This document shows, one piece after another, positions 3,406-58,855 of a DNA stretch of 64,000 nt (position 1 is its first letter; every line of letters starts with the position of its first letter). Source of the DNA: Candidatus Fermentibacterota bacterium (GTDB taxonomy: Bacteria; Fermentibacterota; Fermentibacteria; Fermentibacterales; JCC-6); NCBI GenBank assembly GCA_963845085.1, contig CAWJQI010000005.1, forward strand, positions 448,502 to 512,501, read 5' to 3'. The notes under the pieces were generated by a model that was not told the DNA's origin, ran no database searches, and saw only the letters and a program-made list of their open reading frames with translations. Both the position numbers and the translations under genes were made by a program.

Positions 3406-3413
3406 GCCCGTAC

Positions 3414-4394
3414 CTACCTGCTCTCGTCGAGGAGATCGCGGAGACTCTGGAGTTCCGCCTCTGCGGCCCTTCTTCGGGCTTCAAGCTCTTCAAGCCTTGC
3501 CCGGGCCCTCGCTATCCGCTGCTGCTCCCTCTCGAGCTCAAGTCCCTGAGCGCCGAGCAGGGGCCCGATCCGGGAGGTCAGGGCGAGGGAGAACTTGGCG
3601 TTCTGGCAGGGATCCTGCGCATTCTGGCCTTCGGGCGGGAAGAGCGCCATTTCAACTTCGGCAGCGGCGAGATTTATGGTAACGTAACGATTCACTTCAT
3701 AAGCGACGCCAAGGTTGAAATCCTTGCCGTCCTGTTCAACGGCCAGGGAAAAGGCATCGCTGGGGTCCCATACCAGAGAGCCGAAAAGGCCGTTGGCCAC
3801 GGCGCTGCCGATGTTCATCGCACCGCCTTCACCGATGACGCCCACGAACCTTCCAACTCCTATCCCGAGATTCACGGTGACAGGAACGCCGATGAGATAC
3901 ATCATGCTCTTGGATGCAACACCGTAAGCGGACCAGTTCTGGGCATGATCGTAGTTGTAGTACCCCTCCTCATCCCACGCGCCGTAGATGACTCCGGTCG
4001 AGTCGGGCGTTCCGGGAGGACCGCTGTACACGTCCACCCTTTCAACTCCGAACATGTTCTCACAGCCGATGGCGAATGCGGGGACATCGATCCCCTCGCG
4101 AAGAACCATGACCTTCATGTTGGCCACAAATCCGCCGTCACCGAGGTAGGATCCGCCGATCTGGCCGTAGCCGAGTATCCCGAAATCCACATAGCCCGCT
4201 GTGGCAAGCTCGCTCTGAGCCGCGCCCGAAGAGTCCTCCATGCTGTACATGGCTGCGCCGAACCCAAGCTCTATCTCCGTGTGCTGCAGGATGTAAGCAT
4301 CGGGCGAATTCAGAACGCCTCCGTAGGCAAACGGAACCGAAGCGGCGTGAAGCATAAAAGCCATGACCGGCAGGAACAGCAATGTCAGCCGCAT
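3414..4394 (-). CDS. Secreted, Gly/aromatic-rich (beta-rich, possibly outer-membrane) protein with C-terminal coiled coil
   Basis: ORF 3414..4514 trimmed to the internal Met giving MRLTLLFLPVMAFMLHAASVPFA (signal peptide). The body is rich in G/Y/F/V alternations. The C-terminus LELEREQQRIARARARLEELEARRRAAEAELQSLRDLL is a predicted coiled coil. The stop lies 8 nt upstream of the TPR gene start. Confidence 0.6.
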   Translation of the reverse strand: MRLTLLFLPVMAFMLHAASVPFAYGGVLNSPDAYILQHTEIELGFGAAMYSMEDSSGAAQSELATAGYVDFGILGYGQIGGSYLGDGGFVANMKVMVLREGIDVPAFAIGCENMFGVERVDVYSGPPGTPDSTGVIYGAWDEEGYYNYDHAQNWSAYGVASKSMMYLIGVPVTVNLGIGVGRFVGVIGEGGAMNIGSAVANGLFGSLVWDPSDAFSLAVEQDGKDFNLGVAYEVNRYVTINLAAAEVEMALFPPEGQNAQDPCQNAKFSLALTSRIGPLLGAQGLELEREQQRIARARARLEELEARRRAAEAELQSLRDLLDESR

Positions 4395-4604
4395 AAGACT
4401 CCTTCCGGCCCCTCCAGACCCGGTGAGTTGAACAAATCCCGAAACAGAATAGGGCATTTCCCCGTTGCTGAGTTGATAGTGAATATCAGCCAAGTTTGTT
4501 CCCTGGTCAACCACGGGGAACGAATTTGACCCCGGAGGATACTGGTTTTATTCTTCACGTCTTGGCGTTGCGCCAGGAAAACAGTTGGGAATTCGGAGGC
4601 GGCG

Positions 4605-6509
4605 TTGCTTTTTGCAGCTACAGCACTGCTTTTTCTATCCCTCGGAGGGGCATTTCCAGACTGGGAGATCCAGCTTGAGGCCACTCCAAGGGATGGTCCG
4701 CACCTGGTGCCAGACGGTGCCGGCGGGCAGTGCATTCTCATACCCATGGGAAATGCCGGCCTTGGCGGGTGGAGCCACGGCGGGGCAGTTCTTCAGGGCT
4801 TTCCCGTGTCGAGCGGCGCGGGTGTCATACTGCGACCCGCATGGATCCGGGGCCCGGGCGGCTCAACCCTCATCTCGTACGCCGACAACACCGGCCATGC
4901 CCACCTGGTTGACATCAGGGGCGCCGAGGTGCCGGGATGGCCGGTGAACACCGGGGGAAACATCGTCACCGGCGTGTCCGCGGTTGACCTCGACTGCGAT
5001 GAAAACCCCGAGATAGCCTTCGGTACCAGCGACGGAATGGTCTGGCTGCTCGATTCCGGTGGTGATCCGCTTCCGGGGTGGCCCGTTGACCTTTCCTCAC
5101 AGCTGCTCTGGCAGCCGACCCAGGTCAGTCTGGGCGGCGGCTCCGGAAAGGGGCTTGTATGCGCCTTGAGCAGTTCGGTGCTGACCGTGCTGGACATGCG
5201 CGGCGAACCCCTCCCGGGATGGCCTCTCAACCTTCCGTTCCCCGTGGGAAGCAACCCGGTTTCGGGTGACCTGAACTGCGATGGACAGGCCGACATAGTG
5301 TTCGCCTCCCAGAACAGGAGGTTCTATCTGCTGAACTCCCAGGGCAGGGAGCAGGAGGGGTGGCCGTACTTTCTCAGCGACCGGCCGGTCAGGGGTGCCG
5401 CTGCTCTCGGCATGCTGGGCAGCGCCTTCTCGTCTCCACAGACTGCCCTCAGCACGATCGACAGCCTTGTTTACCTCCTGAACGGCAACGGCACGCTCGC
5501 GGGCGAATGGAGATGGCCGAACAGGACCGAATCGATCCCATTCCAGCCCATTGTTGTCAACACCCCCTACGGCCCTGCTGTTCTTGCGGCAACCGAGAAC
5601 GGCATGATCCACGCATGGAACGCCGCAGGAGAATCACTGGACGGCTTTCCCTTCCAGCATCAGGGCGGGGTGGCGTTCCCTCCGGTCGCGGGCGATCTTG
5701 ACGGAAACGGGTTCGGAGAGCTCGTGGTTCTGAGCGCGGGCGGAGGGCTGGCCGTGTACTCCCTCAATGCCCACTACTCGGAGGGCGCAATCTGGCCGCT
5801 GCCGCTCGGCAACCCCGCAAACTCCGGTGTCTTCGGTTGTAGCGACCTCCCCGTCGCAACAGTTGGCGAGGTCGAATCAAGGAACACCGGTGACGTCGTC
5901 ATACCCTTCTCCGTCAGCGGTTCGCCGTACTCCGACATCACGCTCTACTACTCGCTCGACGCGGGCTACTCGTGGCTTGATACCCGCAGTTTCACCCGGA
6001 ACCAGTCATCGATCGTCTGGCACACCGACGCCGATCTTCCGCACGGCAACGAGCGACAGGTGGTGGTCCGCGTGACGCCCGTCTTCCAGGGGGGGCTCGG
6101 TGAATGCGGGATCTCAGGGATCTTCCAGGTGGACAACAACATCCCCCCCGCCATACACCTCGAAACACCTGAGATGATCGGCGGAGGACGCGTATCGTTC
6201 ACCTACACCGTCGATGACCCCGAGGGTGACATCATCCAGATTCAGGCGCAGTACTCCACCGACGGAGGGGAGAACTGGCATACGATGCATCTCGGAGGGA
6301 CAACGCTCGAGATATCTCCGTGGTTCTATGGAGAACCGTTCCATTGGAACGCCGAACGAGACCTTGGCCAGCTGGTAACCGAGGATGTGCATATCAGGGT
6401 CAGGGCAGCCGATGCAAAACCGGGTCCGTGGGACGGCATCGAGGGGCTCACTGTAGACACCAGGGCCATTCTTCCGGATCCCGAAGCAGCCGCCCCCGGG
6501 CTTCCCTGA
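4605..6509 (+). CDS. Secreted FG-GAP/VCBS-repeat protein with two C-terminal Asp-box-bearing Ig-like modules
   Basis: TTG start preceded by GGAGG (4595..4599, 5-nt spacer). Hydrophobic N-terminus MLFAATALLFLSLGGA. Repeated calcium-binding-type motifs DLDCDENPEIAFGTSDG, GDLNCDGQADIVF, GDLDGNGFGELVV. Asp-box-like motifs YSLDAGYSW and YSTDGGENW near the C-terminus. Confidence 0.75.
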   Translation: MLFAATALLFLSLGGAFPDWEIQLEATPRDGPHLVPDGAGGQCILIPMGNAGLGGWSHGGAVLQGFPVSSGAGVILRPAWIRGPGGSTLISYADNTGHAHLVDIRGAEVPGWPVNTGGNIVTGVSAVDLDCDENPEIAFGTSDGMVWLLDSGGDPLPGWPVDLSSQLLWQPTQVSLGGGSGKGLVCALSSSVLTVLDMRGEPLPGWPLNLPFPVGSNPVSGDLNCDGQADIVFASQNRRFYLLNSQGREQEGWPYFLSDRPVRGAAALGMLGSAFSSPQTALSTIDSLVYLLNGNGTLAGEWRWPNRTESIPFQPIVVNTPYGPAVLAATENGMIHAWNAAGESLDGFPFQHQGGVAFPPVAGDLDGNGFGELVVLSAGGGLAVYSLNAHYSEGAIWPLPLGNPANSGVFGCSDLPVATVGEVESRNTGDVVIPFSVSGSPYSDITLYYSLDAGYSWLDTRSFTRNQSSIVWHTDADLPHGNERQVVVRVTPVFQGGLGECGISGIFQVDNNIPPAIHLETPEMIGGGRVSFTYTVDDPEGDIIQIQAQYSTDGGENWHTMHLGGTTLEISPWFYGEPFHWNAERDLGQLVTEDVHIRVRAADAKPGPWDGIEGLTVDTRAILPDPEAAAPGLP

Positions 6510-6510
6510 A

Positions 6511-7779
6511 TCAAACCACAGGCTTTTCGCCGACCCCGCACCAGCGTGATTTGCCGCAGGCCTTTTCAAGGGTGAGCGGCGCCTTTTCCGAAGCCAGCTC
6601 AAGCATTTTCCCCGCGATCGCCCTGATGTCCCACTGGGCGTGGGCGTCGTCCCTCAGCCTGCAGAAGTGGTAGAACTCGCGTCCGTTCATGCTCACGATG
6701 ACCTGCCTTCGATGGGCATTCGTGAGGAGATAGCCGGTGCCGAGCCTGTCCGCAGCCTCACCTGCGGAAAGCACCGCATCCCTGAACATCGGCTCGAATC
6801 CGGCATCGCGGACCGATTGCGGAACCGTGATCCCCAGTGAGGTGCTGTAGGATGAAACCAGCTGCGTGCACATCCTGTGCCTCTTGAGCTGGGCGTACGC
6901 AGTTGCGGAGAGCATGAGGGAAAAATCCGAACGGAATAGCTCCCATGCCCTGGGAACGGCGTCGTGAACACCGAGAGACCGGTAGACGATGTCAAAGAGC
7001 TCCCTGCGTGGAAGCGGCCCGTGGATACGCTCGAGCCACGATGCAACCCTTTCGTCACCATCGCATTCGAGCAGCTCGACATCGTTGCCCGGAACCGGGT
7101 CGGGCTGAACGTGGGCGAACCCGTCCATCCCGGAGGGGCTTGTGAAGAGCAGAAGGGAGGGAGCCACGGGCTCAACCGCGCTGTAAAGCGCTTCGGCCAA
7201 CGCCCGCACCTCTTCGAGCGGGTGTGCCCTGAGCCGGCGTATCATGTGTTCCAGCTCCCGGGCGTTCACCGTCATGCCCATCTGGCTCGTCGTGGCTAGC
7301 GGGAGCAGGTACCTTGCGTCCTCCCTCGCGGTGCTCCTGTCGAATCCTGCCCCGGCGAAACCTTTCAGGAGCTTGCCGTATGCTGCGAACAGGTTCTTCA
7401 CGGTTCCGGTGAAAAGCCCCTCGTCCGCCGTCCCGACGGGAAGATGCCAGTCCTCCCCCATCCTCACATAACGCTGAGACTTCTCGGTGAAGCTCGCAAG
7501 CCGGAAAGACTGAAGGGCTTCAACGGCAAGCCTTGATATGCCTATTACATCGAAGTTGAACACGGCGTGCTCGGCAACGGAACCGTGGCCGTAATCGAAG
7601 ACGATCCGCCGGTTCGATTCCCTCGCGCTTTCAACCTCCCGGGCCGATTCCCTGCGCAGTTCGTCCACGGGGGCCGGATCCCTGCTGATCCGGGCGTAGG
7701 CCGCGCTGATCGTTTCGGGGGTTGCGACCGGGGCATCGCGGTCTGTGTTGAAGCCCGCAAGAATGACTTTCAAACCCAT
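6511..7779 (-). CDS. thyX: FAD-dependent thymidylate synthase-like protein, tandem (two-module) ThyX architecture
   Basis: The first half carries HGSVAEHAVFNF...SFRLASFTEKSQRY (ThyX HxSxxEH and SQRY signatures). The second half carries QLKRHRMCTQLVSSYS (RHR signature). At 422 aa it is about twice a canonical ThyX monomer. Confidence 0.65.
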   Translation of the reverse strand: MGLKVILAGFNTDRDAPVATPETISAAYARISRDPAPVDELRRESAREVESARESNRRIVFDYGHGSVAEHAVFNFDVIGISRLAVEALQSFRLASFTEKSQRYVRMGEDWHLPVGTADEGLFTGTVKNLFAAYGKLLKGFAGAGFDRSTAREDARYLLPLATTSQMGMTVNARELEHMIRRLRAHPLEEVRALAEALYSAVEPVAPSLLLFTSPSGMDGFAHVQPDPVPGNDVELLECDGDERVASWLERIHGPLPRRELFDIVYRSLGVHDAVPRAWELFRSDFSLMLSATAYAQLKRHRMCTQLVSSYSTSLGITVPQSVRDAGFEPMFRDAVLSAGEAADRLGTGYLLTNAHRRQVIVSMNGREFYHFCRLRDDAHAQWDIRAIAGKMLELASEKAPLTLEKACGKSRWCGVGEKPVV

Positions 7780-47827: not shown

Positions 47828-48508
47828 ATGCCGCGTTATTCAAGAGTCAATAAAGTGATGGAGGCCGCCATGCTTCTGTTTTCCAGAGCATTCGTTCTTC
47901 TCATCCCTCTCCTGTTCGCAGCGTGTTCCGAAAACGCTTATGAAGCGACCGCACCCGACATGTCCGGCGAACCTGGCAGCACCGATTCTGAAGCCGGAGC
48001 CGCAAGCGTCTGCAGGGGGCACATCATGTCCATATCCAACGCCTGCGTGTGGTACTACGCCTTACATACGGCCTACCCGCAGAACCTCCTCGCCCTGGGA
48101 ACTTCCTATTCAGGGATGCTGTGCCCGTCCTGCGGTCTGCCGTACGTCTTCCGCAGCACGGAAGGCAGCTTCGCGGTTGCCTGCCCCTCCATGCATTCCA
48201 CGGTAAACCACGGTCACATAGTGAACGGAATGCCCTCATGGCCCACCACTTTCAACTCCTGCAGGTCCACAATGAGAACAATCGCTTCAATGTGTGTTAT
48301 TTATTATGCTGTTTATTCTGAGTATCCTGACTCACTTGCGGACCTCGGCGAAGAATATCCATGCCTGAGATGCCCGTCCTGCCTTGATTCGGAGTATGTG
48401 TATTATTCACGCTCCGAAGGGCAGGAGTTTTTCATTTCCTGCCCACTCCAGGGGGATGAGAACCACGGATACATTGACAACGGCATAGCAAGCTGGACGC
48501 CGTGGTGA
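47828..48508 (+). CDS. Cys-rich lipoprotein made of two tandem ~85-aa repeats (pilin-head-like motif)
   Basis: LLIPLLFAACSEN is a lipobox. The repeats are CRGHIMSISNACVWYYALHTAYPQNLLALG..CPSCGLPYVF..FAVACP...HGHIVNGMPSW and CRSTMRTIASMCVIYYAVYSEYPDSLADLG..CPSCLDSEYVY..FFISCP...HGYIDNGIASW. The exact start is uncertain. Confidence 0.55.
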   Translation: MPRYSRVNKVMEAAMLLFSRAFVLLIPLLFAACSENAYEATAPDMSGEPGSTDSEAGAASVCRGHIMSISNACVWYYALHTAYPQNLLALGTSYSGMLCPSCGLPYVFRSTEGSFAVACPSMHSTVNHGHIVNGMPSWPTTFNSCRSTMRTIASMCVIYYAVYSEYPDSLADLGEEYPCLRCPSCLDSEYVYYSRSEGQEFFISCPLQGDENHGYIDNGIASWTPW

Positions 48509-48512
48509 TGCA

Positions 48513-49511
48513 GTGAACCCGGGCCCGCCCCGTTCGACTCCCGGGAGGATGAAGACCGCAAAGCCCGTAGACTGGGCGGAAAAGAAAACAAAACAGAATG
48601 TCATCATCGACCAGAGGAGATTTCTCTGGCATGACGATACTGTGGAAAAGCTTGCCGCCTGGATGGGGCTCGGGCAGGGAATTCACGCTCTGGATGTCGG
48701 CTGCGGTCTTGGATATCTCGGGCGTGTTTTCTGGAAACACTTCGGGCAGGGCGGCACTTACACCGGGCTCGACAATTCCCGGCCACTGCTCAAACAGGCC
48801 TTAAAGGAAAGCAGTGAATGGGCAGGCCCCGGAAACGCCTGCTTCGCATGCGGCGATGCCGTCAGATTGCCGTTCCCCGACGGAACATTCGACTGGACTG
48901 CCTGCCAGACCCTTCTCATGCACTGCACCGAACCCGAGGCCGTCCTCGCGGAGATGACAAGGGTCACCAGACCCGGCGGAGTCGTATCGTGCAATGAGCC
49001 CGACAACGTGACGGCCGCGCGCGCCCGCACCTACCAATCCTTTCATGAGGATACAATCGAGGACGAGGTGATCCGAATAAGGGTCCTCCACCATTGGGCA
49101 GCCGGCAGAAAACAACTCGGTCACGGCGATTACGCCATAGGCAACAGGGTCCCATCCATGATGCAGAAACTGGGGCTTTGTGATATCGACATCAGGGCCA
49201 ACGACATGGTCGGCCTCGTCCAGCCGCCGTACGACACCCCTTCGATGCATTTCAGGATGGAGCAGATGAAGAGGAACATCGGGGAATTGGAAAAAATGGG
49301 AACGAAAAGGTTCGGGATGGACCGCGAGTTCCGCAGGTTCTTCTTCGCCGGAGGGGGGACAGGGCATTTATGGAGAAAATTCCTCGCAATGAACCGGCTG
49401 AGCGGTGAGCGTGACCTGAAGGCCATGAAGGAACAGATTGAAACGCTGACCCTTTGCTCCTGTGGCAGTTCATGCAGCTTCTTCTGCATAAAGGGAAGGA
49501 AACCGGAGTGA
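48513..49511 (+). CDS. Class I SAM-dependent methyltransferase
   Basis: ALDVGCGLGYLG is motif I. FDWTACQTLLMH and VTRPGGVV also fit. The start is uncertain: GTG at 48513 or ATG at 48549. Confidence 0.7.
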   Translation: MNPGPPRSTPGRMKTAKPVDWAEKKTKQNVIIDQRRFLWHDDTVEKLAAWMGLGQGIHALDVGCGLGYLGRVFWKHFGQGGTYTGLDNSRPLLKQALKESSEWAGPGNACFACGDAVRLPFPDGTFDWTACQTLLMHCTEPEAVLAEMTRVTRPGGVVSCNEPDNVTAARARTYQSFHEDTIEDEVIRIRVLHHWAAGRKQLGHGDYAIGNRVPSMMQKLGLCDIDIRANDMVGLVQPPYDTPSMHFRMEQMKRNIGELEKMGTKRFGMDREFRRFFFAGGGTGHLWRKFLAMNRLSGERDLKAMKEQIETLTLCSCGSSCSFFCIKGRKPE

Positions 49512-50167
49512 CCCCGCCCCTGATCGAGGCGTGTGTCACCACCCTTGCCGAAGCTATTCTGGCGCGTGATTCGGGCGCTGATCGCATCGAGCTCTGCCGT
49601 GAACTTGAAACGGGGGGGCTGACCCCATCTGCAGAGCTTCTCGCACAGGTTGCCGGGGAGACTGGCATGCCGGTTCATGCAATGATAAGGACCACGCCGG
49701 AAGGCTTCCGCGCCCGAACCGTCGAGATTGACAGGATGGCGCTGGAGATCGAAGCCCTGGCCCGTGCGGGCGCCACCGGCCTTGTTTTCGGTGTTCTCGA
49801 CAGGAATGACAGCATCGACCGCCCTGCTCTCCGACTGCTTGTGGCGGCTGCAGGAAGCCTTCCCGTGACATTCCACCGGGCCTTCGACCTTGTGGAGGAC
49901 GGGAATTCTGCAATCCGCATGCTTGCCGAAGAAGGCGTCGCGAGGGTGCTTTCATCGGGCGGGCTCAGCACGGCCTGGATGGGCAGGAGGGTCATCGGCG
50001 AGCTTGTCCGGACCGCGGGAACCCGGATCGTCATAATGGCGGGTGGAAGCGTCAGGGCTGACCACGTTCATGCCCTGGTCTCGGAGACCGGTGTCAGGGA
50101 ACTTCATGCCAGGGTTTCCGCCGTTCCGGCAATCGTTCAATCCTTCAAACGGCTCCCTGAAGCATAA
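49508..50167 (+). CDS. cutC: Copper homeostasis protein CutC
   Basis: LIEACV...ARDSGADRIELCRELETGGLTPS, LPVTFHRAFD, VARVLSSGG and IMAGGSVRADHV track E. coli CutC along its whole length. The GTG start overlaps the upstream stop (GTGA). Confidence 0.8.
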   Translation: MTPPLIEACVTTLAEAILARDSGADRIELCRELETGGLTPSAELLAQVAGETGMPVHAMIRTTPEGFRARTVEIDRMALEIEALARAGATGLVFGVLDRNDSIDRPALRLLVAAAGSLPVTFHRAFDLVEDGNSAIRMLAEEGVARVLSSGGLSTAWMGRRVIGELVRTAGTRIVIMAGGSVRADHVHALVSETGVRELHARVSAVPAIVQSFKRLPEA

Positions 50168-50171
50168 AAAA

Positions 50172-50197
50172 GGCCGGAGACCCGAAGGTCCCCGGCC
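50172..50197. terminator. Hairpin between convergent genes, with a U-tract on the minus strand
   Basis: GGCCGGAGACC-CGAA-GGTCCCCGGCC forms an 11-bp stem with 1 mismatch. It is preceded by AAAAAA on the + strand, which is TTTTTT after the hairpin for the minus-strand gene. Confidence 0.5.
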
Positions 50198-50212: not shown

Positions 50213-51217
50213 CTACCGAACCACCGTGAACCTGGTCAGGACTGCATCGCTCGACGATGTACGAAGCCTGGCGAAATAAACGCCGGACTCCTCGATCGTG
50301 ACCGGTACAACCCCGCCCGCTTCGAACTCGGCAACAAGACGGCCTGCGGTGTTGTAGACGCTGACCTGGCCTGTTGCCCCGGCGGGAACCACTGTGCCGA
50401 TGCTGAGATTGCCTGTCGACGGGTTGGGCCATGCGTTGATGGAGAGGGAACCGATCCCTGCGCCCTCGAAATCCTCGACGCCCGTGGCGGTGTCGGGGAG
50501 GTCTTCGAAGGAGGCGTTGAGCACTTCATGTGTACCCGTGCTCGCCTGAACGTAGGTTATCACATCGAGGTTGTTGAAGATGTGAACGGCGGGATCGAGT
50601 GTGTAGGTCCCCGTGACGTTGATGGTCTGGGGGTAGGGGCCGGTGATCGAGATGGCCGTACCCGAGGCGCCCATGGGCCAGGCGCGGGGCTCCCACATGA
50701 GTTCCTGGCCGTTGTAGACGCCATAGGGCGTGCCGGCAATTTCATGGCTTTCGAGGATGGCGGACCAGATCTTGATCTCGCCCGATACACCGGGATCCTG
50801 CTCGATGGTGAGGGTGTAGTAGGCGGTGCCGCCGGTGGCATTGCCCACCATCTCGACATCGATGTCAACATAGCTCGGAACGGCGAGCCTTGTGTTGATG
50901 AACCCCTGCACGACGGTCTGGGTCCAGCCGATTTGCTGGCTGACTCCGTCAACCTGGAAAGTGGGGGTGTAACCCCAGTTGTACAGCGCATCACGTGCGG
51001 TGACGTAGGGCCCTGAACCCGGGCCGTTGTAGAAGAGGATCTGCGGGGCGACATCGCCGGTGGCGAGATAACCGTTGATCATTGTCTTGACAGCTGACCA
51101 GCTGCTTCCGCAGGAGCTTCAACCGGTCTGGGTGTATTCCTCGAAGAGCACCACTCTCTCCGCGGCGGTGGCGATGCCTGTGACGGCGGCAATGACCAGC
51201 AGGAGAAGCAATTTCAT
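50213..51217 (-). CDS. Candidate selenoprotein: secreted thioredoxin-fold/Omp28-like protein with a T9SS C-terminal sorting domain and an in-frame UGA at 51119..51121
   Basis: The ORF track lists only 50213..51082. The same frame continues upstream through one TGA to ATG 51217 (GGAGG at 51224..51228, 6-nt spacer). That ATG encodes MKLLLLLVIAAVTGIATAAE-RVVLFEEYTQTG-U-SSCGSSWSAVKT-MINGY... The C-terminus WPNPSTGNLSIG...VSVYNTAGRLVAEF...GVYFARL is T9SS CTD-like. Confidence 0.6.
51090..51105 (-). promoter_or_regulatory. SECIS-like hairpin 3' of the in-frame UGA
   Basis: mRNA nt 17-32 (U of UGA = 1) read G-CAGC[UGGUCA]GCUG-U. The loop core GGUC lies at nt 23-26. This is the same core as, and within 1 nt of the position of, the E. 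coli fdhF SECIS as I recall it. Confidence 0.4.
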
Positions 51218-51347
51218 CCGTGACCTCCGTTCAGTTTTCGATTCACTTCGTATGTATATGGGCAAGAGCACCGGTATGCAATACCCGGGTGATCATGAAG
51301 TCGCCCGGGCATCGGCACGGACGCAGACAAGGGCTCGATTCCGCGGT

Positions 51348-52163
51348 TTACACCCATTCTACGGTGAGGGGCTTCCGGCGCGGTATGCCGAAGACGGCGT
51401 ACTTCGGTTTTCCGAGCATCATCGCAAAGGCAAACCTGCGCCCTGAGGGAATGCTGAGCTCCTTTTGAAGAGGTTCGCAGGATGCGGCCGCCATTGCCAC
51501 GAATCCCGCCCAGCATGTGCCGATGCCGAATGCCGGCGCGGCGATGTCGACATGGGTCATTGCGATCACGGCGTCATTGAATGCGATCTGATTGCCGGCG
51601 GGCACATGGGCAATGAGCAGGTGGGGTGCTCCAAGGCAGATCACGTCGATTCCGGCCTCCCATTCCCGGATCAGGGTGGGCGCGTAGCCACTCATGGGGT
51701 GCCCGGAGTTCACAAGCGTTTTCATCCACTCGATGGTCAGCCCGGCTATGGTTCGCACCTTTTCCGAGTCGTACACCACCATCCAGTTCACCGGCTGCCC
51801 GTTTCCGGCGGATGCCGCGTACCTTGCAATGTCGAGGAGTTCGACAATGCGCTGCCTAGGCAGGGATTCCCTGATGAAATGTCTCACGGACCGCCGCTTC
51901 TTCATGTAATAGCCCAAGTCATCGGGGGAGATGTTTCCGGCTCCGGCGGGCAGCACTTCCCTTTCATCGGGGCGGAAATTGAGCCTCAATGCCTGTGTGG
52001 GACAGAATGCCTCACAGTGGCCACACTGAAAGCACATGCCCGCCCCGTCCGCATCGATCGAAGGGGGCTGCCCCGGCTCCTGATTGATTATCGACATTGT
52101 GCATACCGACTTGCAGATGCCGCACCCGGTGCAGCTGTTACTGTCGACGAAAAATGTGGTCAT
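51348..52163 (-). CDS. 2x[4Fe-4S] ferredoxin domain fused to a nitroreductase domain
   Basis: Start moved to ATG 52163, giving MTTFFVDSNSCTGCGICKSVC...CFQCGHCEAFCP, followed by KKRRSVRHF...AASAGNGQPVNWMVV (nitroreductase). Confidence 0.75.
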   Translation of the reverse strand: MTTFFVDSNSCTGCGICKSVCTMSIINQEPGQPPSIDADGAGMCFQCGHCEAFCPTQALRLNFRPDEREVLPAGAGNISPDDLGYYMKKRRSVRHFIRESLPRQRIVELLDIARYAASAGNGQPVNWMVVYDSEKVRTIAGLTIEWMKTLVNSGHPMSGYAPTLIREWEAGIDVICLGAPHLLIAHVPAGNQIAFNDAVIAMTHVDIAAPAFGIGTCWAGFVAMAAASCEPLQKELSIPSGRRFAFAMMLGKPKYAVFGIPRRKPLTVEWV

Positions 52164-52515
52164 GTTTTGTTCCGTTCCTTGCCGGCATTGTGCCTGTGCA
52201 TTCTCCGGCCGCATTGGCAGGGCCGTTCCGTTCCAAAGGCCAAACATGCGAAAGTTATAAGCGATCGGCACGAAGGATTTCCAGGAATCCAGTTTCTGGT
52301 CATTTGTTGCGAGATTGCCGCATTTCGGAAATGGGTTATCTTATCATTCGTTTGTGCCGGACGCACGTGGGCGGATCGTTCGAAGCAACTTCATTCCGCG
52401 AGCTTCAGGCCCACGGATGAAAGGGCCCGCAACCGAACTCATTACTGTAAACTTCTGTGTCAACAAGGCAATAGGTGTAGAAATACACGCGATCCGGGGA
52501 GCAGATAAAACTTTC

Positions 52516-55500
52516 ATGAAACCCTCCGAACCAACCGGTGCGGTTCTTGTCCTCGGCGGCGGCATAGGCGGCATCCAGGCCGCACTCGATCTGGCCGATT
52601 CCGGGTTCAGGGTCTACCTGGTTGAAAAACTTGGAGCCATCGGCGGCACAATGGCCGGGCTCGACAAGACCTTCCCCACCAACGACTGCTCCATGTGCAT
52701 ACTTTCCCCGAAGCTCGTGGAGTGCGGAAGGCATCTCAACATCGAAATACTCACCAATTCCGAACTGAAGGGCATCGATGGGGTTCCCGGCGCCTTCACG
52801 GCGACCGTAGAACAGGCGCCGAGATACGTTGACCCATCACGGTGCACAGGCTGTGGCGATTGCGCGGAAAAGTGCCCGATCAAACTGCCGGATCACTTCA
52901 ACGGGGGGTTCAGCCGGAAGAGGGCTATTTCACGCCTTTACGAGCAGGCGTATCCACCCTCCTTTGAGATCAACCCGGAAAACTGCATAGGGTGCAAAAT
53001 CTGTGAAAAGACATGCAAGGCAGGCGCGATAGATTTCGGAATGAAACCGCGCACGCTGAAGCTCGAGGTCGGCGCCGTGATCGCATGCCCCGGCTTCGAG
53101 GCCTTCGATGCGGGTCTCATTTCCAACTACGGCTACGGCTGCTTTCCCAACGTCATCACGAGCATGGAGTTTGAGCGGATTCTGAGCGCATCGGGTCCCT
53201 ATCAGGGCAGGCTGCTCCGTCCATCGGACGGCACGGCCCCGAAGCGCATAGCGTGGATCCAGTGCGTCGGATCCAGGGACATCCACAGGGTAAGCAACAA
53301 CTATTGCTCCGCTGTCTGCTGCACATATGCGATCAAGGAAGCGGTCGTCGCCAGGGAACACGGGAGCTCCGATCTTGAAACGACTGTTTTCTACATCGAC
53401 ATAAGAACATACGGCAAGGGCTTCGAGCGCTATTACGAAAGGGCGCGGACCGAGCACGGTGTCAGGTTCGTCAGGTCCGAGATAAGCCGCATCTACCAGG
53501 ATCCCTCGAACAGCCTCATCCTGAGGTTCTCGGAAGACGGTTCAACCCGGGAGGAGGTGTTCGACCTGGTGGTCCTCTCTGTCGGGATGGTTCAGAGCCG
53601 GGCCAACCGCGAACTTGCGGAGCGGCTTGGTCTCGAGCTGAACTGCCACGGGTTCTGCGGGACGGAGGGATTCTCGCCCGCACGCACCTCAAGGCCCGGA
53701 ATCTTTGCCGCCGGCGCCTTCAGCGGCCCGAAAGACATCCCCGAAACAGTCATGGGCGCAAGCGCTGCAGCCGCCGAGGCTTCAGCCATGCTTGCATCGG
53801 CCAGGCACAGCCTCACCCGGAAGAGAGACTGGCCGCCTGAAAAGCCAGTCGGCCGCGAGAGGCCCCGCATCGGTGTTTTCATCTGCCATTGCGGCATCAA
53901 CATCGGCAGCGTGGTGAACATCCCCGAGGTCAAGGCCTACGCTGAGGGGCTGCCAAACGTGGTTTTCGTCGATGACTCGCTTTTCTCCTGTTCGCAGGAC
54001 AACCAGCGGAGGATCAGGGACCGCATCGCCGAACACGGGCTCAACCGAATTGTTGTAGCGGCATGCACCCCGCGAACCCACGAACCTCTTTTCACGGAGA
54101 CCCTTCGCGAGGCCGGGCTCAACAGGTACCTCTTCGAGATGGCGAACATCCGCGACCAGTGCGCCTGGGTCCACCAGAACCAACCCGAGAAAGCCACGCA
54201 GAAGGCGAAGGACCTTGTCCGGATGTCAGTCGCGAAGGCGAAGCTCATAGAGCCTCTTTTCCAGACGCCCCTTGAGGTAAACCGGTCCGCGCTCGTAGTC
54301 GGCGGTGGCATCTCGGGCATGGTCTGCGCCCTGTCCATCGCATCCCAGGGGTTCGCCGTGCATCTCGTAGAGAGCTCTTCCTCGCTGGGCGGAAACGCGC
54401 TGAAGATTCATTCCACGATAGAGGGCACGGACGTGCAGCCATTCCTCTCCGGGCTTTCCGAAAGGGTCGAAGCCGATCCGCTGATCACGCTCCACATGAA
54501 TGCGCGGGTCCGGAGCGTCAGCGGGTTTGTCGGCAACTTCAAAACCGTTGTGGAATCGGACGGTTCCGAGTCAGAGATCTACCATGGTGCAGCGGTCATC
54601 GCTGCGGGCGCCGAGGCCTGCAAACCCGACGAATACCTTTACGGAAAACATCCCCGGGTATTCTCACTACTCGAACTCGAGGGCGAACTTGCCGTAAAAA
54701 GCCCTCTCGTTTCATCCTCGGAAAACATCGTGCTGATCCAGTGCGTGGGCTCGCGTGACGACAGGCGGCCCTACTGCAGCAGGACCTGCTGCAGCAAGTC
54801 GGTCAGGATCGCCCTTGAGCTGAAAAAAGCGAATCCCGATGTTGCGATATATGTCCTCTATCGCGACATCAGAACCTACGGGTTCCTCGAGCAGTACTAC
54901 CTCGAGGCGCGTGAGGCGGGGGTGCTGTTCATCCAGTACGACCCCGATCACAAGCCGGTGGTTGAAGCCGTGGAGAGGGATGGACGGGAACGCATCAGGG
55001 TGACGGTGACCGACCGGACGCTCAATGAGGAATTTGCGATAGACGCCGACGTGCTCGGGCTGGCAACGGCAATCATTCCGCGCCCTGAAAACAGGGAACT
55101 GGCCGGCCTGTTCAAGGTGCCGCTGAACGAGGACGGCTTCTTCATGGAGGCGCACATCAAGCTCCGCCCGGTTGACTTTCCTTCAGAGGGAGTCTTCGTC
55201 TGCGGTCTCGCACACAGTCCGAAGCTGATCAGCGAGAGCATTATCCAGGCGCAGGCGGCTGCATCAAGGGCTTCGGTCATCCTCAGCAGAGACTCGATCG
55301 AAGCCGGTGGTACCATCAGCGTCATCAACGGGAACAAGTGCAGCGGCTGCGGGATGTGTGTTGATCTGTGCCCCTTCGGCGCGATCGACTACAACGTTGA
55401 GGAACACAGGGCGGTTGTCAACGAGGCTCTCTGCAAGGGCTGCGGGGTGTGCGCTTCGTCGTGCCGCTGCGGGGCGGTTGACATAAGGGGTTTCACCGAC

Positions 55501-55569
55501 AACTCAATCCACTCCATGATACGCAACAGCGTCATTCAGGGCTTGCGCCGGCAAGGGCGGACAGATTGA
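52516..55569 (+). CDS. hdrA: Heterodisulfide reductase subunit A-like flavoprotein, double-length (two HdrA-type modules)
   Basis: Start moved to ATG 52516 (MKPSEPTGAVLVLGGGIGGIQAALDLA). DKTFPTNDCSMCILSPK, two QCVGSRD motifs, RIGVFICHCGINIG in mid-protein, a second GGGISG dinucleotide fold, and three ferredoxin-type CxxCxxCxxxCP pairs. Confidence 0.8.
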   Translation: MKPSEPTGAVLVLGGGIGGIQAALDLADSGFRVYLVEKLGAIGGTMAGLDKTFPTNDCSMCILSPKLVECGRHLNIEILTNSELKGIDGVPGAFTATVEQAPRYVDPSRCTGCGDCAEKCPIKLPDHFNGGFSRKRAISRLYEQAYPPSFEINPENCIGCKICEKTCKAGAIDFGMKPRTLKLEVGAVIACPGFEAFDAGLISNYGYGCFPNVITSMEFERILSASGPYQGRLLRPSDGTAPKRIAWIQCVGSRDIHRVSNNYCSAVCCTYAIKEAVVAREHGSSDLETTVFYIDIRTYGKGFERYYERARTEHGVRFVRSEISRIYQDPSNSLILRFSEDGSTREEVFDLVVLSVGMVQSRANRELAERLGLELNCHGFCGTEGFSPARTSRPGIFAAGAFSGPKDIPETVMGASAAAAEASAMLASARHSLTRKRDWPPEKPVGRERPRIGVFICHCGINIGSVVNIPEVKAYAEGLPNVVFVDDSLFSCSQDNQRRIRDRIAEHGLNRIVVAACTPRTHEPLFTETLREAGLNRYLFEMANIRDQCAWVHQNQPEKATQKAKDLVRMSVAKAKLIEPLFQTPLEVNRSALVVGGGISGMVCALSIASQGFAVHLVESSSSLGGNALKIHSTIEGTDVQPFLSGLSERVEADPLITLHMNARVRSVSGFVGNFKTVVESDGSESEIYHGAAVIAAGAEACKPDEYLYGKHPRVFSLLELEGELAVKSPLVSSSENIVLIQCVGSRDDRRPYCSRTCCSKSVRIALELKKANPDVAIYVLYRDIRTYGFLEQYYLEAREAGVLFIQYDPDHKPVVEAVERDGRERIRVTVTDRTLNEEFAIDADVLGLATAIIPRPENRELAGLFKVPLNEDGFFMEAHIKLRPVDFPSEGVFVCGLAHSPKLISESIIQAQAAASRASVILSRDSIEAGGTISVINGNKCSGCGMCVDLCPFGAIDYNVEEHRAVVNEALCKGCGVCASSCRCGAVDIRGFTDNSIHSMIRNSVIQGLRRQGRTD

Positions 55570-56012
55570 ACAGCGGTACGGCGAACAGCGACTGGGAACC
55601 GAGGATAGTGGCATTCCTCTGCAACTGGTGCAGTTACGCAGGCGCCGATCTGGCGGGAGTGGGGCGGCTTCAGTATCCCGCGAGCGTAAGGATCATTCGA
55701 GTTCCCTGCTCGGGGCGGATCAGCCCCTTTTTCATCCTGTCCGCTTTTCAAAAGGGGGCCGACGGAGTCCTGGTGAGCGGCTGTCACCCCGGCGACTGCC
55801 ACTATCTCACAGGGAACTATGTTGCCCGCCGCAGGTTCGCACTTCTCAAAAGCCTGCTCGATCATATCGGCATTGAGGAGGGACGCGTGCAGTTTGCATG
55901 GGTTTCCGCCTCGGAGGGCGGAAGGTTCGCCGAAGTGATCGAAAGTGTCACGGAATCCGTCAGGAAGCTCGGGCCGGTGCGTCAAATGGTGAAAAGGCAG
56001 GGGCTTCTGTGA
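55566..56012 (+). CDS. mvhD: MvhD/FlxD-like iron-sulfur protein
   Basis: PRIVAFLCNWCSYAGADLAG...RIIRVPCSGRISP...GADGVLVSGCHPGDCHY. The TTG start overlaps the hdrA stop (TTGA). Confidence 0.8.
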   Translation: MNSGTANSDWEPRIVAFLCNWCSYAGADLAGVGRLQYPASVRIIRVPCSGRISPFFILSAFQKGADGVLVSGCHPGDCHYLTGNYVARRRFALLKSLLDHIGIEEGRVQFAWVSASEGGRFAEVIESVTESVRKLGPVRQMVKRQGLL

Positions 56013-56977
56013 ATTGGGAAGAAATCACCGCAAGGATCCGTGAAGAGGCAGGAAAGCTCCTCGCCAGCAGAACGGTCGACGTGGTTATCGGTTTCGAGAA
56101 CGGTTCGCTCCCCCTTCGCGCGACGCCGTGCTTTGTGGAAAGCGCTTCCGATACGGGCAGGCTGGTGTGGAATTCCTTCTGCAGCAACAACCTGAGCCGG
56201 CACCTGATCCGCCCCGGCGGAAGGGTTGGGATTATTGCGAAAGGATGCGACACCCGTGCCATTGTCGAACTCATCAAGGAAAAGCAGCTCCGGCGGGAGG
56301 ATGTGTTCATAATCGGCGTCCCCTGCAGGGGAATGATCAACGTAAAACAGCTTCGGTCGCTCTGCCCGGGGAAAGTGATCTCGGGCCTCACGGAAACAGG
56401 CGATGACCTTGTTGTCACCGGCATTGATCTGCGGCTCACGGTCGGGCGGGAGGAGTACCTCTATCCCGCCTGCAAAGCCTGCGCCGCGATGGTTCCGGTC
56501 ATCCATGATCTGCTTGTCGAGGCGGAACCCGGGAAAAGCACCAGTGACGGTTTTCAGGACGTGAGCGAATTCGCTTCGTTGCCCCCCGGCGAAAGATGGG
56601 CGCACATCACCAGTGAGATGGACCGCTGCATACGCTGCTACGCCTGCAGAAACGCGTGTCCCCTGTGCTACTGCAAACAGTGCTTCGTCGACGACACACA
56701 GCCGCAGTGGGTCGGGAAAGGGGTGGCAGGAAGCGACACGATGTTCTTCCATCTCATGCGAACGATTCATCTGGCCGGAAGATGCATCGAGTGCGGCGAG
56801 TGTGAGCGCTCCTGCCCCATGGATATCGATATAAGGATGCTTCACAGGAAGATGTCGGCCGATGTGGCCGGATTGTACGGCTGCACTCCCGGCCTGGACG
56901 CAGGCGAAAGTGCGCCGCTTTCCCGGTTCAAACCCGATGATACGGAGGATTTCATGCTTGATCCCGGTCCTGCATGA
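56009..56977 (+). CDS. Iron-sulfur protein (FlxC-like) with 2x[4Fe-4S] motifs
   Basis: The GTG start overlaps the mvhD stop (GTGA). CIRCYACRNACPLCYC and CIECGECERSCP. Confidence 0.6.
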   Translation: MNWEEITARIREEAGKLLASRTVDVVIGFENGSLPLRATPCFVESASDTGRLVWNSFCSNNLSRHLIRPGGRVGIIAKGCDTRAIVELIKEKQLRREDVFIIGVPCRGMINVKQLRSLCPGKVISGLTETGDDLVVTGIDLRLTVGREEYLYPACKACAAMVPVIHDLLVEAEPGKSTSDGFQDVSEFASLPPGERWAHITSEMDRCIRCYACRNACPLCYCKQCFVDDTQPQWVGKGVAGSDTMFFHLMRTIHLAGRCIECGECERSCPMDIDIRMLHRKMSADVAGLYGCTPGLDAGESAPLSRFKPDDTEDFMLDPGPA

Positions 56978-58023
56978 AACAGAACATGCATTACAAATCG
57001 ATCCGGAAGAACGGGATTGAGAGTTTCCTTGACCGCCTTCTGACCGATCACACGGTGGTGGCACCCATCAGGAGCGGCGACATGGTCACCTTCGCCGTCA
57101 TCAATTCGGGCGGCGAGGCAACGCTCGACTATACGAACAGCAAGGCTTCGCCCAAGGGCGTGGTGCTGCCCCAGCTCGAAACCCTTCTTTCAGCAGCCAC
57201 AGGTGCCGAGGGAACGGACGTGACCGAACACCTCGGCAACCGGAAGCCCATTGTCCTTTTCGGCTTGCGCCCCTGTGACGCTCGAGGCATCGGTTTCCTT
57301 GACAGGGTCTTCAACTCCGGGAAAAACCGGGACGTCTACTACGCAAACAGAAGGGAAGCGCTGCTGACGGTTTCCCTCGGCTGTTCCAATCCACAGGAGA
57401 CATGCTTCTGTTCCACGACGGGCGGAGGCCCGTTTTCGACAGAAGGCTCGGATGTGATGCTCATCGAATGCGGAGACTGCTACCTCGTCAACGCCGTGAC
57501 GGACAGGGGGGAAAATCTCGTCAGTTCCCTGGAACTAAGTGATGCTCCTGATACCGATGTCAGCGAGACCACTGACCGCTGCCTGGGCATCAGGGCGGCG
57601 ATCTCGCCCGAGATCGACCTCTCGTCACTCGCGGACAGGCTGGACAGGTCCTTCGATGAATCGTCATGGCGCACACTCACTGAGAAGTGCATCAGCTGCG
57701 GTGTCTGCACCTATCTCTGCCCCACGTGCCACTGCTTCGACATCGTTGACGAGGAGACCTCGGGGGTCCGCGTGCGGAACCGCATCTGGGATTCATGCCA
57801 GTTCCCGTACTTCACGATGCAGGCATCGGGCTTCAACCCCAGGCCGACTTTCAAGGAAAGGTACCGGCAGCGAATCATGCACAAGTTCAGCTACTGCTTC
57901 GACAGCTACGGCATGACGGGATGCGTCGGCTGCGGTCGCTGTGTGCTCGAGTGCCCGGTCAACCTCGACATACGCCAGGTTGTGCTGTCGTTCTTCGGCG
58001 CTCGGGAGGGATGTGATGAATAA
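56974..58023 (+). CDS. Iron-sulfur protein (FlxB / sulfhydrogenase-beta / AsrA-like)
   Basis: ATGA overlap. CISCGVCTYLCPTCHCFD and CVGCGRCVLECP. Confidence 0.65.
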   Translation: MKQNMHYKSIRKNGIESFLDRLLTDHTVVAPIRSGDMVTFAVINSGGEATLDYTNSKASPKGVVLPQLETLLSAATGAEGTDVTEHLGNRKPIVLFGLRPCDARGIGFLDRVFNSGKNRDVYYANRREALLTVSLGCSNPQETCFCSTTGGGPFSTEGSDVMLIECGDCYLVNAVTDRGENLVSSLELSDAPDTDVSETTDRCLGIRAAISPEIDLSSLADRLDRSFDESSWRTLTEKCISCGVCTYLCPTCHCFDIVDEETSGVRVRNRIWDSCQFPYFTMQASGFNPRPTFKERYRQRIMHKFSYCFDSYGMTGCVGCGRCVLECPVNLDIRQVVLSFFGAREGCDE

Positions 58024-58855
58024 TCCTTACGCACCGATGCCGATGAAGGTCGAGAAGAGCATCGTGGAGACCGACGACGGAAGCATCAGGACCATTTCCC
58101 TGTCATTCGCCCGAAGTGCGGATGCGAAAGCGTTTGTTTTCAGGCCGGGGCAGTTTTCCGAGCTGTCTCTGCTCGGCATCGGGGAGGCGCCGTTCGGCAT
58201 CGCCTCGTCGCCGACCGAACCGGAGCTGCTCGACTTTTCGGTCAGCAGAGTCGGGCTGGTAACCGCCGAACTTCACAATCTCGAACCCGGCGAAACTGTT
58301 GGCATGAGGGGTCCGCTGGGCAATGGTTACCCTCTCGACGAGCTTCGCGACAAAAACATTCTTGTCGTGGGGGGAGGCTTCGGTTTTTCCACACTTCGGG
58401 CATTCACCCGTTTCGCGCTTGATCCCGCAAACAGACAGCAATTCAGGAACATCACGGTGGTCTACGGTGCAAGGAACCCGGGGCTGCTCCTCTACAAAGA
58501 CGACCTTCGGGAGTGGGGTATGCGGGGCGACATGCGCCTGCTGGTAACAGTCGACAAGGCGGATGCGGATTGGGGGGGCAGGACAGGCGTCGTCCCCTCG
58601 ATTGTCGGGGAGCTCGAAATCGATGCGGAAAACACGGCTGCCCTGGTGTGCGGACCTCCAGTGATGATAAAGTACACACTGCCAGTGCTTTCCGGTCTTG
58701 GCCTGTCGCCTGACCACATCCACCTGTCCCTTGAGATGAAGATGAAATGCGGCATCGGGAAGTGCGGAAGATGCAACATAGGCGGCTCGTACGTATGCAC
58801 CGACGGCCCTGTGTTCAGCCTTTCCAGCCTCGACAACCTCCCCCGGGAGTACTGA
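58016..58855 (+). CDS. FAD/NAD(P)-binding oxidoreductase with C-terminal [2Fe-2S] (FlxA / AsrB / PyrK-like)
   Basis: ATG at 58016 gives an 8-nt overlap. RPGQFSELS (FAD), VVGGGFGFSTL (NAD) and CGIGKCGRCNIGGSYVCTDGPVF (2Fe-2S). Confidence 0.7.
   Translation: MNNPYAPMPMKVEKSIVETDDGSIRTISLSFARSADAKAFVFRPGQFSELSLLGIGEAPFGIASSPTEPELLDFSVSRVGLVTAELHNLEPGETVGMRGPLGNGYPLDELRDKNILVVGGGFGFSTLRAFTRFALDPANRQQFRNITVVYGARNPGLLLYKDDLREWGMRGDMRLLVTVDKADADWGGRTGVVPSIVGELEIDAENTAALVCGPPVMIKYTLPVLSGLGLSPDHIHLSLEMKMKCGIGKCGRCNIGGSYVCTDGPVFSLSSLDNLPREY

Follow-up and report, generated by a model that had tools for sequence, protein, structure and literature searches.

The DNA analysed here, a window of 64,000 nucleotides from contig CAWJQI010000005.1 of a Candidatus Fermentibacterota bacterium, holds on its minus strand, at 51217..50213, a gene that very probably encodes a single preprotein of 334 residues, with the UGA at codon 33 decoded as selenocysteine (Sec). 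In translation the locus forms one frame of 334 codons, the Sec codon included, followed by TAG at 50215..50213. The in-frame TGA at 51121..51119 is its lone interruption; a sequence-only reading of this DNA had claimed a single TGA in an otherwise intact frame, and translation reproduced it. The product starts with MKLLLLLVIAAVTGIATAAERVVLFEEYTQTG, the frame after the TGA reads SSCGSSWSAVKTMINGY... as far as the TAG, and the part downstream of the TGA (SSCGSSWSAVKTMINGYLATGD...) amounts to 301 more codons. Mechanical listing of open reading frames (ORFs) gives at this locus an ORF of 50 amino acids that terminates at the TGA and one of 289 amino acids (50213..51082) that begins at an internal Met and corresponds to the 3' 87% of the gene. 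The gene unit itself is uninterrupted from ribosome-binding site through terminator, and has the following features.

51224..51228, minus strand: Shine-Dalgarno sequence GGAGG, read directly, with a 6-nt spacer to the ATG at 51217..51215.
50213..51217, minus strand: full coding sequence of the proposed selenoprotein, 334 codons and TAG, from translation and tblastn.
51161..51217, minus strand: predicted signal peptide MKLLLLLVIAAVTGIATAA, of the Sec-translocon, signal peptidase I type, with A-x-A before A-E-R, by inspection.
51119..51121, minus strand: in-frame TGA, very probably read as selenocysteine, residue 33; a conserved codon, with Cys in relatives.
51110..51121, minus strand: U-S-S-C redox motif (UxxC), residues 33-36, predicted at the N-terminus of helix alpha-1, from alignment and the model of a homologue.
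51090..51105, minus strand: candidate selenocysteine insertion sequence (SECIS) hairpin with a 6-bp stem and the loop GGUC at 51096..51099, from the comparative alignment A2.
50882..51160, minus strand: predicted thioredoxin-fold domain, about residues 20-112, with the cis-Pro P85 of T-P-T; approximate coordinates, transferred by alignment from the model of the homologue P0095.
50498..50869, minus strand: predicted beta-sandwich middle domain, about residues 117-240, signature FTGPYPQT, from strands 117-236 of the P0095 model.
50216..50431, minus strand: type A C-terminal sorting domain of the type IX secretion system (T9SS), residues 263-326; TIGR04183 at 31.7 bits against a cut-off of 23.
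50172..50197, minus strand: intrinsic terminator hairpin and T run, 15 nt past the stop, with 11 pairs (9 of them G-C), a loop of 4 and the tail TTTTTT.

The reading frame and its TGA codon

The sequence-only reading had extended the frame upstream to ATG 51217, with its Shine-Dalgarno sequence six nucleotides away, and this was reproduced exactly; of 56 homologous loci, 45 likewise have a Shine-Dalgarno-like motif no more than 18 nt from the corresponding start. By inspection, the signal peptide opens with a basic n-region, has some 15 hydrophobic residues as its core and carries ATA/TAA ahead of the conserved AERVV, while MKLLLLLVIAAVTGIATAAE, which contains no Cys, offers no lipobox and points to processing by signal peptidase I. 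This signal peptide is part of the protein only when the UGA is read through. That it should lie upstream of the TGA, as had been claimed, is supported both by this inspection and by the equivalent N-termini of full-length homologues. In tblastn, the alignments of five full-length family members run through the TGA and extend from 51217 to 50216, except that the Cys form L042 begins at 51196. The codon is also present in another public assembly, where the Logan contig L062, from run ERR10755943, is identical to the window over 221 nt, TGA included. TGA is also the stop of 6 of the 11 neighbouring ORFs, 5 of those 6 with Pfam hits, and so UGA is not reassigned in this genome, in agreement with the original claim that it is a genuine stop for the neighbours. 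Searches with family members (tblastn) found no second copy within the 64-kb window, and a scan of the window for other TGA-split ORFs gave nothing else with a redox context; spurious ORFs were abundant (60% G+C).

Conservation of the codon was assessed at 61 homologous loci from species-representative genomes, the DNA of which was translated in frame upstream, and 57 of these were usable besides the window. The aligned codon is TGA in 55 of the resulting 58 sequences and TGC or TGT in the other 3, and the TGA-bearing loci span species-level genomes at 37-79% protein identity. Around it, the homologous loci share a signal peptide followed by the consensus A-[AS]-[ED]-R-x-V-x-[FW]-[EG]-[EYD]-[FY]-T-Q-T-G, the TGA, and x-x-C. 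The 13 codons 5' of the TGA show 88, 112 and 312 differences from the window in codon positions 1, 2 and 3, respectively, and this third-position bias indicates that the region upstream of the TGA behaves as coding; counted by codon, the same stretch has 210 synonymous and 163 non-synonymous differences from the window. Downstream, the internal Met codon of the window is ATG in just 11 of the 58 sequences and GCT, CTT or TTT in most, and no conserved start follows the TGA.

The same picture emerges from the protein databases. The read-through protein of the window (with U written as C) matched 94 protein clusters, each of which covers at most 87% of the query, and therefore the gene callers began every homologue after the TGA; those clusters with source names belong to Candidatus Fermentibacteria or Aegiribacteria. 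The complete reading frames are 324-344 codons long without a second stop, the exception being L056, which has a frameshift and 146 residues. On the question of decay raised by the sequence-only reading, stops are not scattered across the gene in relatives, since the 54 TGA-bearing homologues stop at one codon only, yet three assemblies do carry an extra frameshift, and these are weighed below. Nor do homologues differ in N-terminal architecture: all have a signal peptide and A-[AE/AD]-R-V-V-L-F-E-E-[FY]-T.

A Cys aligns with the UGA in near homologues (P0095-P0100; L042, L045 and L047) and in distant ones alike. The profile A3, built from 31 full-length family members with U written as C, retrieved six full-length Cys forms, P0095-P0100, with the pattern FGDFST..C..C. 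Among distant full-length homologues, P0118, P0120, P0251, P0252, P0256, P0259 and P0260 all have C-x-x-C at the aligned position; P0118, a Cys relative that is 32% identical, reads LLEDFTNYQCSPCW, and P0120, which combines a Pfam Omp28 domain with a T9SS tail, reads LFEEVTNASCGPCA. When 1.84 billion cluster representatives were scanned exhaustively with HMMER, only 22 matched at E <= 0.001, and the family is therefore small.

The candidate SECIS hairpin and the selenocysteine machinery

Taking the U of the UGA as position 1, the predicted hairpin pairs +17..+22 with +27..+32 (51105..51100 with 51095..51090) around a 4-nt loop at +23..+26. Its support is comparative, and comes from the alignment A2 of 55 TGA-bearing sequences, which is ungapped across the 60 nt past the TGA. 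Standard pairs occupy 97% of the cells of A2, and 6-60% in controls with the 3' arm displaced by 1-3 columns; four of the six stem pairs have changes on both sides. The 24 compensatory cells include U-A to G-C (n=11), A-U to G-C (n=6) and C-G to U-A (n=4), and none of 500 shuffles attained the observed values. Some of the stem changes alter the peptide, from SWSA to SAGA or SWST, with the pairing kept, which argues that it is the RNA pairing that is preserved. The loop is GGUC in 36 of the 55 sequences, CGGG in 8, GGCC in 4, CAGG in 3, GGAC in 2 and otherwise in 2. A SECIS-like hairpin immediately 3' of the TGA had been claimed for the window, and the hairpin proves real, though narrower than the 51060..51125 then given. 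Folding of the window sequence by itself was less helpful: the minimum-energy fold of 51050..51130, in which the UGA region pairs with the true 5' arm, is non-significant (z = -1.0) and uninformative, and was rejected in favour of the comparative structure.

In the published model of bacterial SECIS elements, the apical loop comprises 3-9 nt and the stem 4-16 bp, the loop lies 16-37 nt from the UGA, and one of its first two bases is a G, as a rule with G or U after it; the model also sets an energy threshold of -7.5 kcal/mol (PMC13188914). The window hairpin falls within all four structural limits, with a UGA-to-loop spacing of 19 nt. The Escherichia coli fdhF SECIS, in the K-12 genome, likewise has a GGUC loop, there at +22..+25, one base nearer the UGA. 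The G and U of the fdhF loop are the bases contacted by SelB. As in fdhF and bacterial SECIS elements at large, the hairpin of the window lies within the coding sequence just 3' of the UGA and agrees with the consensus in loop size, G position and spacing; it differs in its short stem (6 bp), with no evident bulged U or extended lower helix, and its role in binding SelB is a prediction.

The genes for Sec synthesis and insertion are encoded in the Fermentibacteria lineage, which has SelA, SelB, SelD and YedF. A tblastn search of all fetched loci with the SelD, SelA and SelB proteins of E. coli located selD, selA and the start of selB directly downstream of a family gene in each of L026, L030 and L031. 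In L031 the island (1206-6866, and likewise in L030 and L026) consists of yedF, an ORF without assigned identity, the family gene, an oppositely oriented selD, then selA and the beginning of selB. The products are well above their cut-offs: SelD at 331 bits against 125 (TIGR00476), SelA at 490 against 268 (TIGR00474), and YedF, just upstream of the family gene, at 148 against 110 (TIGR03527). The selD gene of L031 has an in-frame TGA of its own at the catalytic position (...YAACAG*AGK..., the asterisk marking the TGA) and, beyond it, a G+C-rich hairpin whose loop contains GG, and is thus a second, classical selenoprotein gene in these genomes. Searched with the L031 SelA, the best 120 matches listed comprise SelA of many Fermentibacteria and Aegiribacteria. 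One of these, P0158, lies together with selB, the product of which has SelB winged-helix domains, on the 2,067,562-bp ENA contig ERZ25039527:contig_12235. That contig also holds the syntenic orthologue of the window gene (L067), with the same N-terminus and TGA and followed, as in the window, by CutC and a methyltransferase.

The sequence-only reading had claimed Sec recoding rather than decay, and this is borne out by the conserved UGA, the aligned Cys, the covarying hairpin at the expected distance, the shared N-terminus and the sel genes of the lineage. We hold with high confidence that the UGA at codon 33 encodes Sec, its insertion being deduced here from sequence. A plausible course of events would be the following. 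When the ribosome arrives at the UGA of codon 33, the hairpin, 13 nt past the UGA, would offer its GGUC loop (+23..+26) to the complex of SelB, GTP and Sec-tRNA(Sec), and SelB would deliver Sec in competition with release factor 2. The product would consist of a signal peptide for export through the Sec translocon, a thioredoxin domain with U-S-S-C, a beta-sandwich and a T9SS type A sorting domain. It may then cross the outer membrane by the T9SS and be released or anchored at the surface, like its closest structural relative HBP35, and at the surface it would most likely act as a selenol/thiol-disulfide oxidoreductase.

Architecture, relatives and predicted activity

The T9SS sorting domain that had been claimed at the C-terminus is confirmed by the TIGR04183 score given above, and this model matches 31 of 31 family members; the corresponding Pfam model, PF18962, scores the window protein at 24.9 against a cut-off of 27, just below it. 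The family profile also matches structures of gingipain C-terminal domains (CTDs) in the Protein Data Bank (PDB), and the lineage has further proteins with such a CTD (L031 89-937, and homologues so named by NCBI). For the fold, we used an AlphaFold model of the Cys homologue P0095, which is 45% identical to the window protein, computed from a 38-sequence alignment. The model has a mean predicted local distance difference test (pLDDT) score of 88.5 and a predicted template modelling (TM) score of 0.77, with pLDDT above 93 for residues 21-120. Its thioredoxin core is made up of strand 22-28, helix 33-51, strand 55-61, helix 69-79, strands 86-89 and 93-96, and helix 100-111, with CxxC at 32-35 opening helix 33-51, and is followed by a beta-sandwich (117-236) and the CTD (254-327). 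C33, C36 (U as C) and P85 are invariant in A3, and P85 of T-P-T sits at the cis-Pro loop position of thioredoxins. From this fold and motif, we give about an even chance to a surface-exported thiol-disulfide oxidoreductase in which Sec replaces the N-terminal nucleophilic Cys of CxxC; the export route and surface location of the window protein are likewise predicted.

The closest structural relative, and the top Foldseek match of the model in the PDB, is HBP35 of Porphyromonas gingivalis (5Y1A; E 1.9e-14, TM 0.58/0.61 over the full length). HBP35 combines a thioredoxin-like motif with a C-terminal domain, is displayed at the surface and depends on the Por secretion system (T9SS) for secretion (PMC2907840, PMC3120885). 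It is a faster reductant of insulin than E. coli thioredoxin, except when C48/C51 are mutated (PMC2907840, PMC3120885), and binds hemin via its C-terminal part (PMC2907840). Like the window protein, it has a signal peptide, a thioredoxin-like domain with an N-terminal CxxC, a beta-rich domain and a T9SS CTD. It differs in carrying Cys, not Sec, and in its host, an oral Bacteroidota pathogen as opposed to a Fermentibacteria fermenter. Sequence similarity to HBP35 outside the CTD was not detectable in the PDB profile search, which matched CTDs only.

At the level of sequence, the window protein has weak Pfam matches to Omp28 and DUF1223. Omp28 (PF11551; NF033782 for the lipoprotein) shares with the window family the motif E-E-[FV]-T-x-x-x-C-x-x-C and the overall domain, and the Omp28-type protein P0120 aligns its CxxC with the UxxC of the window. 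The scores, however, are far below threshold (12.2 bits against 34.9 for PF11551 and 12.4 against 150 for NF033782). Moreover, the window signal peptide has no lipobox, so that the product is not a lipoprotein, and its localisation is predicted to depend on the T9SS CTD instead. DUF1223 (PF06764) is similarly a secreted thioredoxin-like family with CxxC, and its structure 2AXO matches the thioredoxin part of the model in Foldseek (TM 0.64 on the target, root-mean-square deviation 4.7). The window protein reaches E 1.4e-3 and 19.1 bits on this family against a Pfam cut-off of 30.7, and DUF1223 has no T9SS domain. We know of no Sec form of DUF1223.

A Sec-containing relative is, by contrast, already on record. 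GOS_C was described from ocean metagenomes as a selenoprotein family of thioredoxin-like fold with UxxC, comprising 74 Sec and 312 Cys sequences and having no known function (PMC2398784), and is listed as 'Hypothetical protein GOS_C', NF045500, motif UxxC, in a 2026 review (PMC13188914); in NCBIfam, NF045500 bears the name 'Omp28-related selenoprotein'. GOS_C/NF045500 and the window family have in common the thioredoxin-like fold, Sec as the first residue of an N-terminal UxxC and many Cys homologues, and are detectably homologous, with an alignment over about profile positions 27-279. The C-terminal third of NF045500 is unmatched by the window family, the T9SS domain of which lies outside the match. 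The habitats also differ, GOS_C coming from marine surface metagenomes and the window family being confined to Candidatus Fermentibacteria (anaerobic digesters, sediments). The cut-off of NF045500 is 200 bits; the window protein attains 17.9, 10 of the 31 family members match (best E 8e-5), and the other related proteins tested reach 28-45 bits, again below 200. NCBI names the truncated homologues 'T9SS type A sorting domain-containing protein', and its selenoprotein model misses them. The window family is thus a divergent, previously unannotated branch of a Sec-using superfamily known since 2008, and by these thresholds is a member of neither NF045500 nor Omp28.

Further candidate Sec forms are found among more distant Omp28-like T9SS proteins. 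L069 (position ~346; JGI 3300037484; P0255) reads VVVENFTNWG*PYC and L070 (~1426; GCA_030373045.1, JAUCPW010000054.1; P0258) reads VLLEEFTWDG*GTC, each with an in-frame TGA at the same UxxC position, so that Sec use recurs across the superfamily. Their database entries are N-terminally truncated at the TGA, and both fall below the NF045500 cut-off (~31 bits against 200). The hairpin of L070 has a CGGU loop at +23..+26; that of L069 has an 8-nt loop with a single G, at the first position. Sec and Cys paralogues also occur within one genome (L031 and L042 in CAZRXU01; L040 and L045 in QNDR01). In the Cys forms L042 and L045 a hairpin of 9 bp persists at the place of the SECIS (+19..+40 after TGC), with the loop CUCA, which contains no G, and this may be a fossil SECIS from a recent switch of Sec to Cys; in the Cys form L047, no hairpin was found at that position.

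Alternative readings and genomic context

Several observations weigh against the interpretation of the gene as a functional selenoprotein. Searches with tblastn, ARAGORN and Rfam found no selA, selB, selD or tRNA-Sec inside the 64-kb window, which has no tRNA genes at all, and ARAGORN found no tRNA-Sec in the window or the 63 fetched loci. In Rfam, the window gave no match at gathering thresholds, and L026, L030 and L031 gave none at E <= 0.01, tRNA-Sec included. The window's own contig is also absent from the best 120 SelA matches listed. At the RNA level, the stem overlaps the conserved S-W-S-A peptide, so that its sequence conservation is partly that of the protein, and the hairpin alone, at -7.1 kcal/mol, is just short of the -7.5 threshold. 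The fold model describes the Cys homologue P0095, not the window protein itself, and the suggested oxidoreductase function derives from fold and motif only. Finally, L067 (2697-3705, the syntenic orthologue on the 2.07-Mb contig, frameshifted ~100 codons in), L056 and L050 have frameshifts in the gene body besides the conserved TGA, which may be assembly indels or real decay.

These last cases, in which the gene is either disrupted or mis-assembled, are what could be said for a pseudogene or a sequencing or assembly error, that is, for a TGA that arose recently by nonsense mutation, or is erroneous, in a former Cys gene from which no full-length protein is made, and one window taken alone would be compatible with it. 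The comparative data effectively refute this reading, which we consider extremely improbable: the TGA occupies the same codon in 54 other loci over the range of identities given above, its flanks are under purifying selection, all but one of the complete TGA-bearing frames are free of other stops, and the second assembly is identical. Nonsense mutations that arose independently would not strike the same codon time and again, nor would a covarying hairpin follow them. Every gene caller instead treats the UGA as a true stop, with a 32-residue peptide ahead of it and a separate 289-residue protein, without signal peptide, from ATG 51082, and the window does have an ATG 13 codons past the TGA to accommodate such a model. 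Its probability is nevertheless very low, as the internal codon is of start type in a minority of homologues only and has no Shine-Dalgarno sequence before its ATG in the window. T9SS cargo needs an N-terminal signal peptide, and the sole one lies upstream of the TGA. Judged by the P0095 model, the shortened product would lose the first strand of the thioredoxin fold and the beginning of helix 1, where the active site lies, and the Cys homologues are continuous proteins. The 289-residue ORF of the public databases is accordingly a gene-calling artefact. Read-through with another amino acid, whether by near-cognate Trp, Cys or Arg insertion or by lineage-specific reassignment, could draw on the failure to see tRNA-Sec in the fetched sequences, and is just as improbable as a true stop. 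UGA ends most of the neighbouring ORFs, SelA, SelB, SelD and YedF are present in the lineage and adjoin the family gene in three genomes, the hairpin fits the SelB-binding consensus (PMC13188914), and the aligned residue in homologues is always a redox Cys, the classic Sec/Cys pair.

If Sec is indeed inserted, the activity could still be other than disulfide exchange, with the surface UxxC binding or transforming a metal, a metalloid or a chalcogen (heme or iron as in HBP35, polysulfide or elemental sulfur, or selenium). HBP35 binds hemin via its C-terminal part besides its thioredoxin activity (PMC2907840), and several recently described extracytoplasmic selenoproteins were proposed to be metal binders (bioRxiv 10.1101/2022.07.06.499078). 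The gene adjoins yedF and selD in L031, and CutC, of the copper-homeostasis family, is a conserved downstream neighbour in the window and L067. We regard such a role as unlikely, though by no means remote: these associations with neighbouring genes are weak and do not hold throughout the family, the resemblance to HBP35 lies in the fold and does not extend to the sequence, and the geometry of cis-Pro loop and CxxC is that of the catalytic thioredoxin fold. More speculative still, and in our view somewhat less probable, is that Fermentibacteria keep the Sec machinery largely for multi-copy, T9SS-displayed selenol oxidoreductases, which would be the first selenoenzymes known to be exported by a T9SS. 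They would serve extracellular redox chemistry, for example on polysulfide or sulfur, selenium or metals, although an extracellular source of electrons is not obvious.

Thioredoxin-fold proteins with UxxC are the commonest class of bacterial selenoproteins, and the family described here is a new branch, not a new principle. What it adds is Sec use in an uncultured phylum of the FCB group, with a selenol active site on a protein predicted to be exported to the surface by the T9SS. Extracytoplasmic bacterial selenoproteins have been documented, SaoB and SaoC among them (bioRxiv 10.1101/2022.07.06.499078). Literature searches found nothing joining Omp28 with selenoproteins or Fermentibacteria with selenocysteine, and for T9SS cargo together with selenoproteins gave incidental co-mentions only. 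Nearly all public copies (~100 protein clusters at 90% identity, NCBI-named entries included) are without signal peptide and active site, and the family is invisible to the NCBI selenoprotein model, with the consequence that surveys of selenoproteomes will under-count Fermentibacteria. HBP35 provides an experimentally tractable Cys analogue. The superfamily is a good case for the study of repeated Sec/Cys exchange and of SECIS gain or loss, because single genomes contain both Sec and Cys paralogues, two Cys forms have retained a hairpin that lacks the GG loop, and L069 and L070 carry UxxC.

The neighbours of the gene, which include an ATP-binding cassette (ABC) transporter, a methyltransferase, CutC, a 4Fe-4S nitroreductase and an HdrA-like cluster, give no clear functional lead. 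Between the ABC-transporter permease and the methyltransferase lies an ORF of 226 amino acids (47828..48508) with no Pfam match at E <= 1e-5. Diverging from the gene, at 51348..58855, is a redox cluster. A nitroreductase with a 4Fe-4S dicluster is encoded on the minus strand; the other products are an HdrA-like flavoprotein of 1084 residues that includes ferredoxin domains, a pair of 4Fe-4S proteins and an NAD-binding protein that has a DHODB-type Fe-S domain. Together they look like an electron-bifurcating module of the Hdr/Flx type. The HdrA-like gene (52315..55569) was considered as a second selenoprotein and rejected, being an uninterrupted ORF without an in-frame stop. Elsewhere in the family, tRNA-Ser(GGA) lies 0.3-1.7 kb upstream of the gene in L014, L022, L023, L049 and L055, and tRNA-Ser(CGA) just downstream of it in L015 and L056, a synteny without obvious meaning. 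CutC and a UbiE-type methyltransferase are conserved convergent neighbours, at 48513..50167 in the window and 3711-5347 in L067. As listed, their two ORFs overlap by 58 nt, and the true start of CutC is therefore probably later than the one listed.

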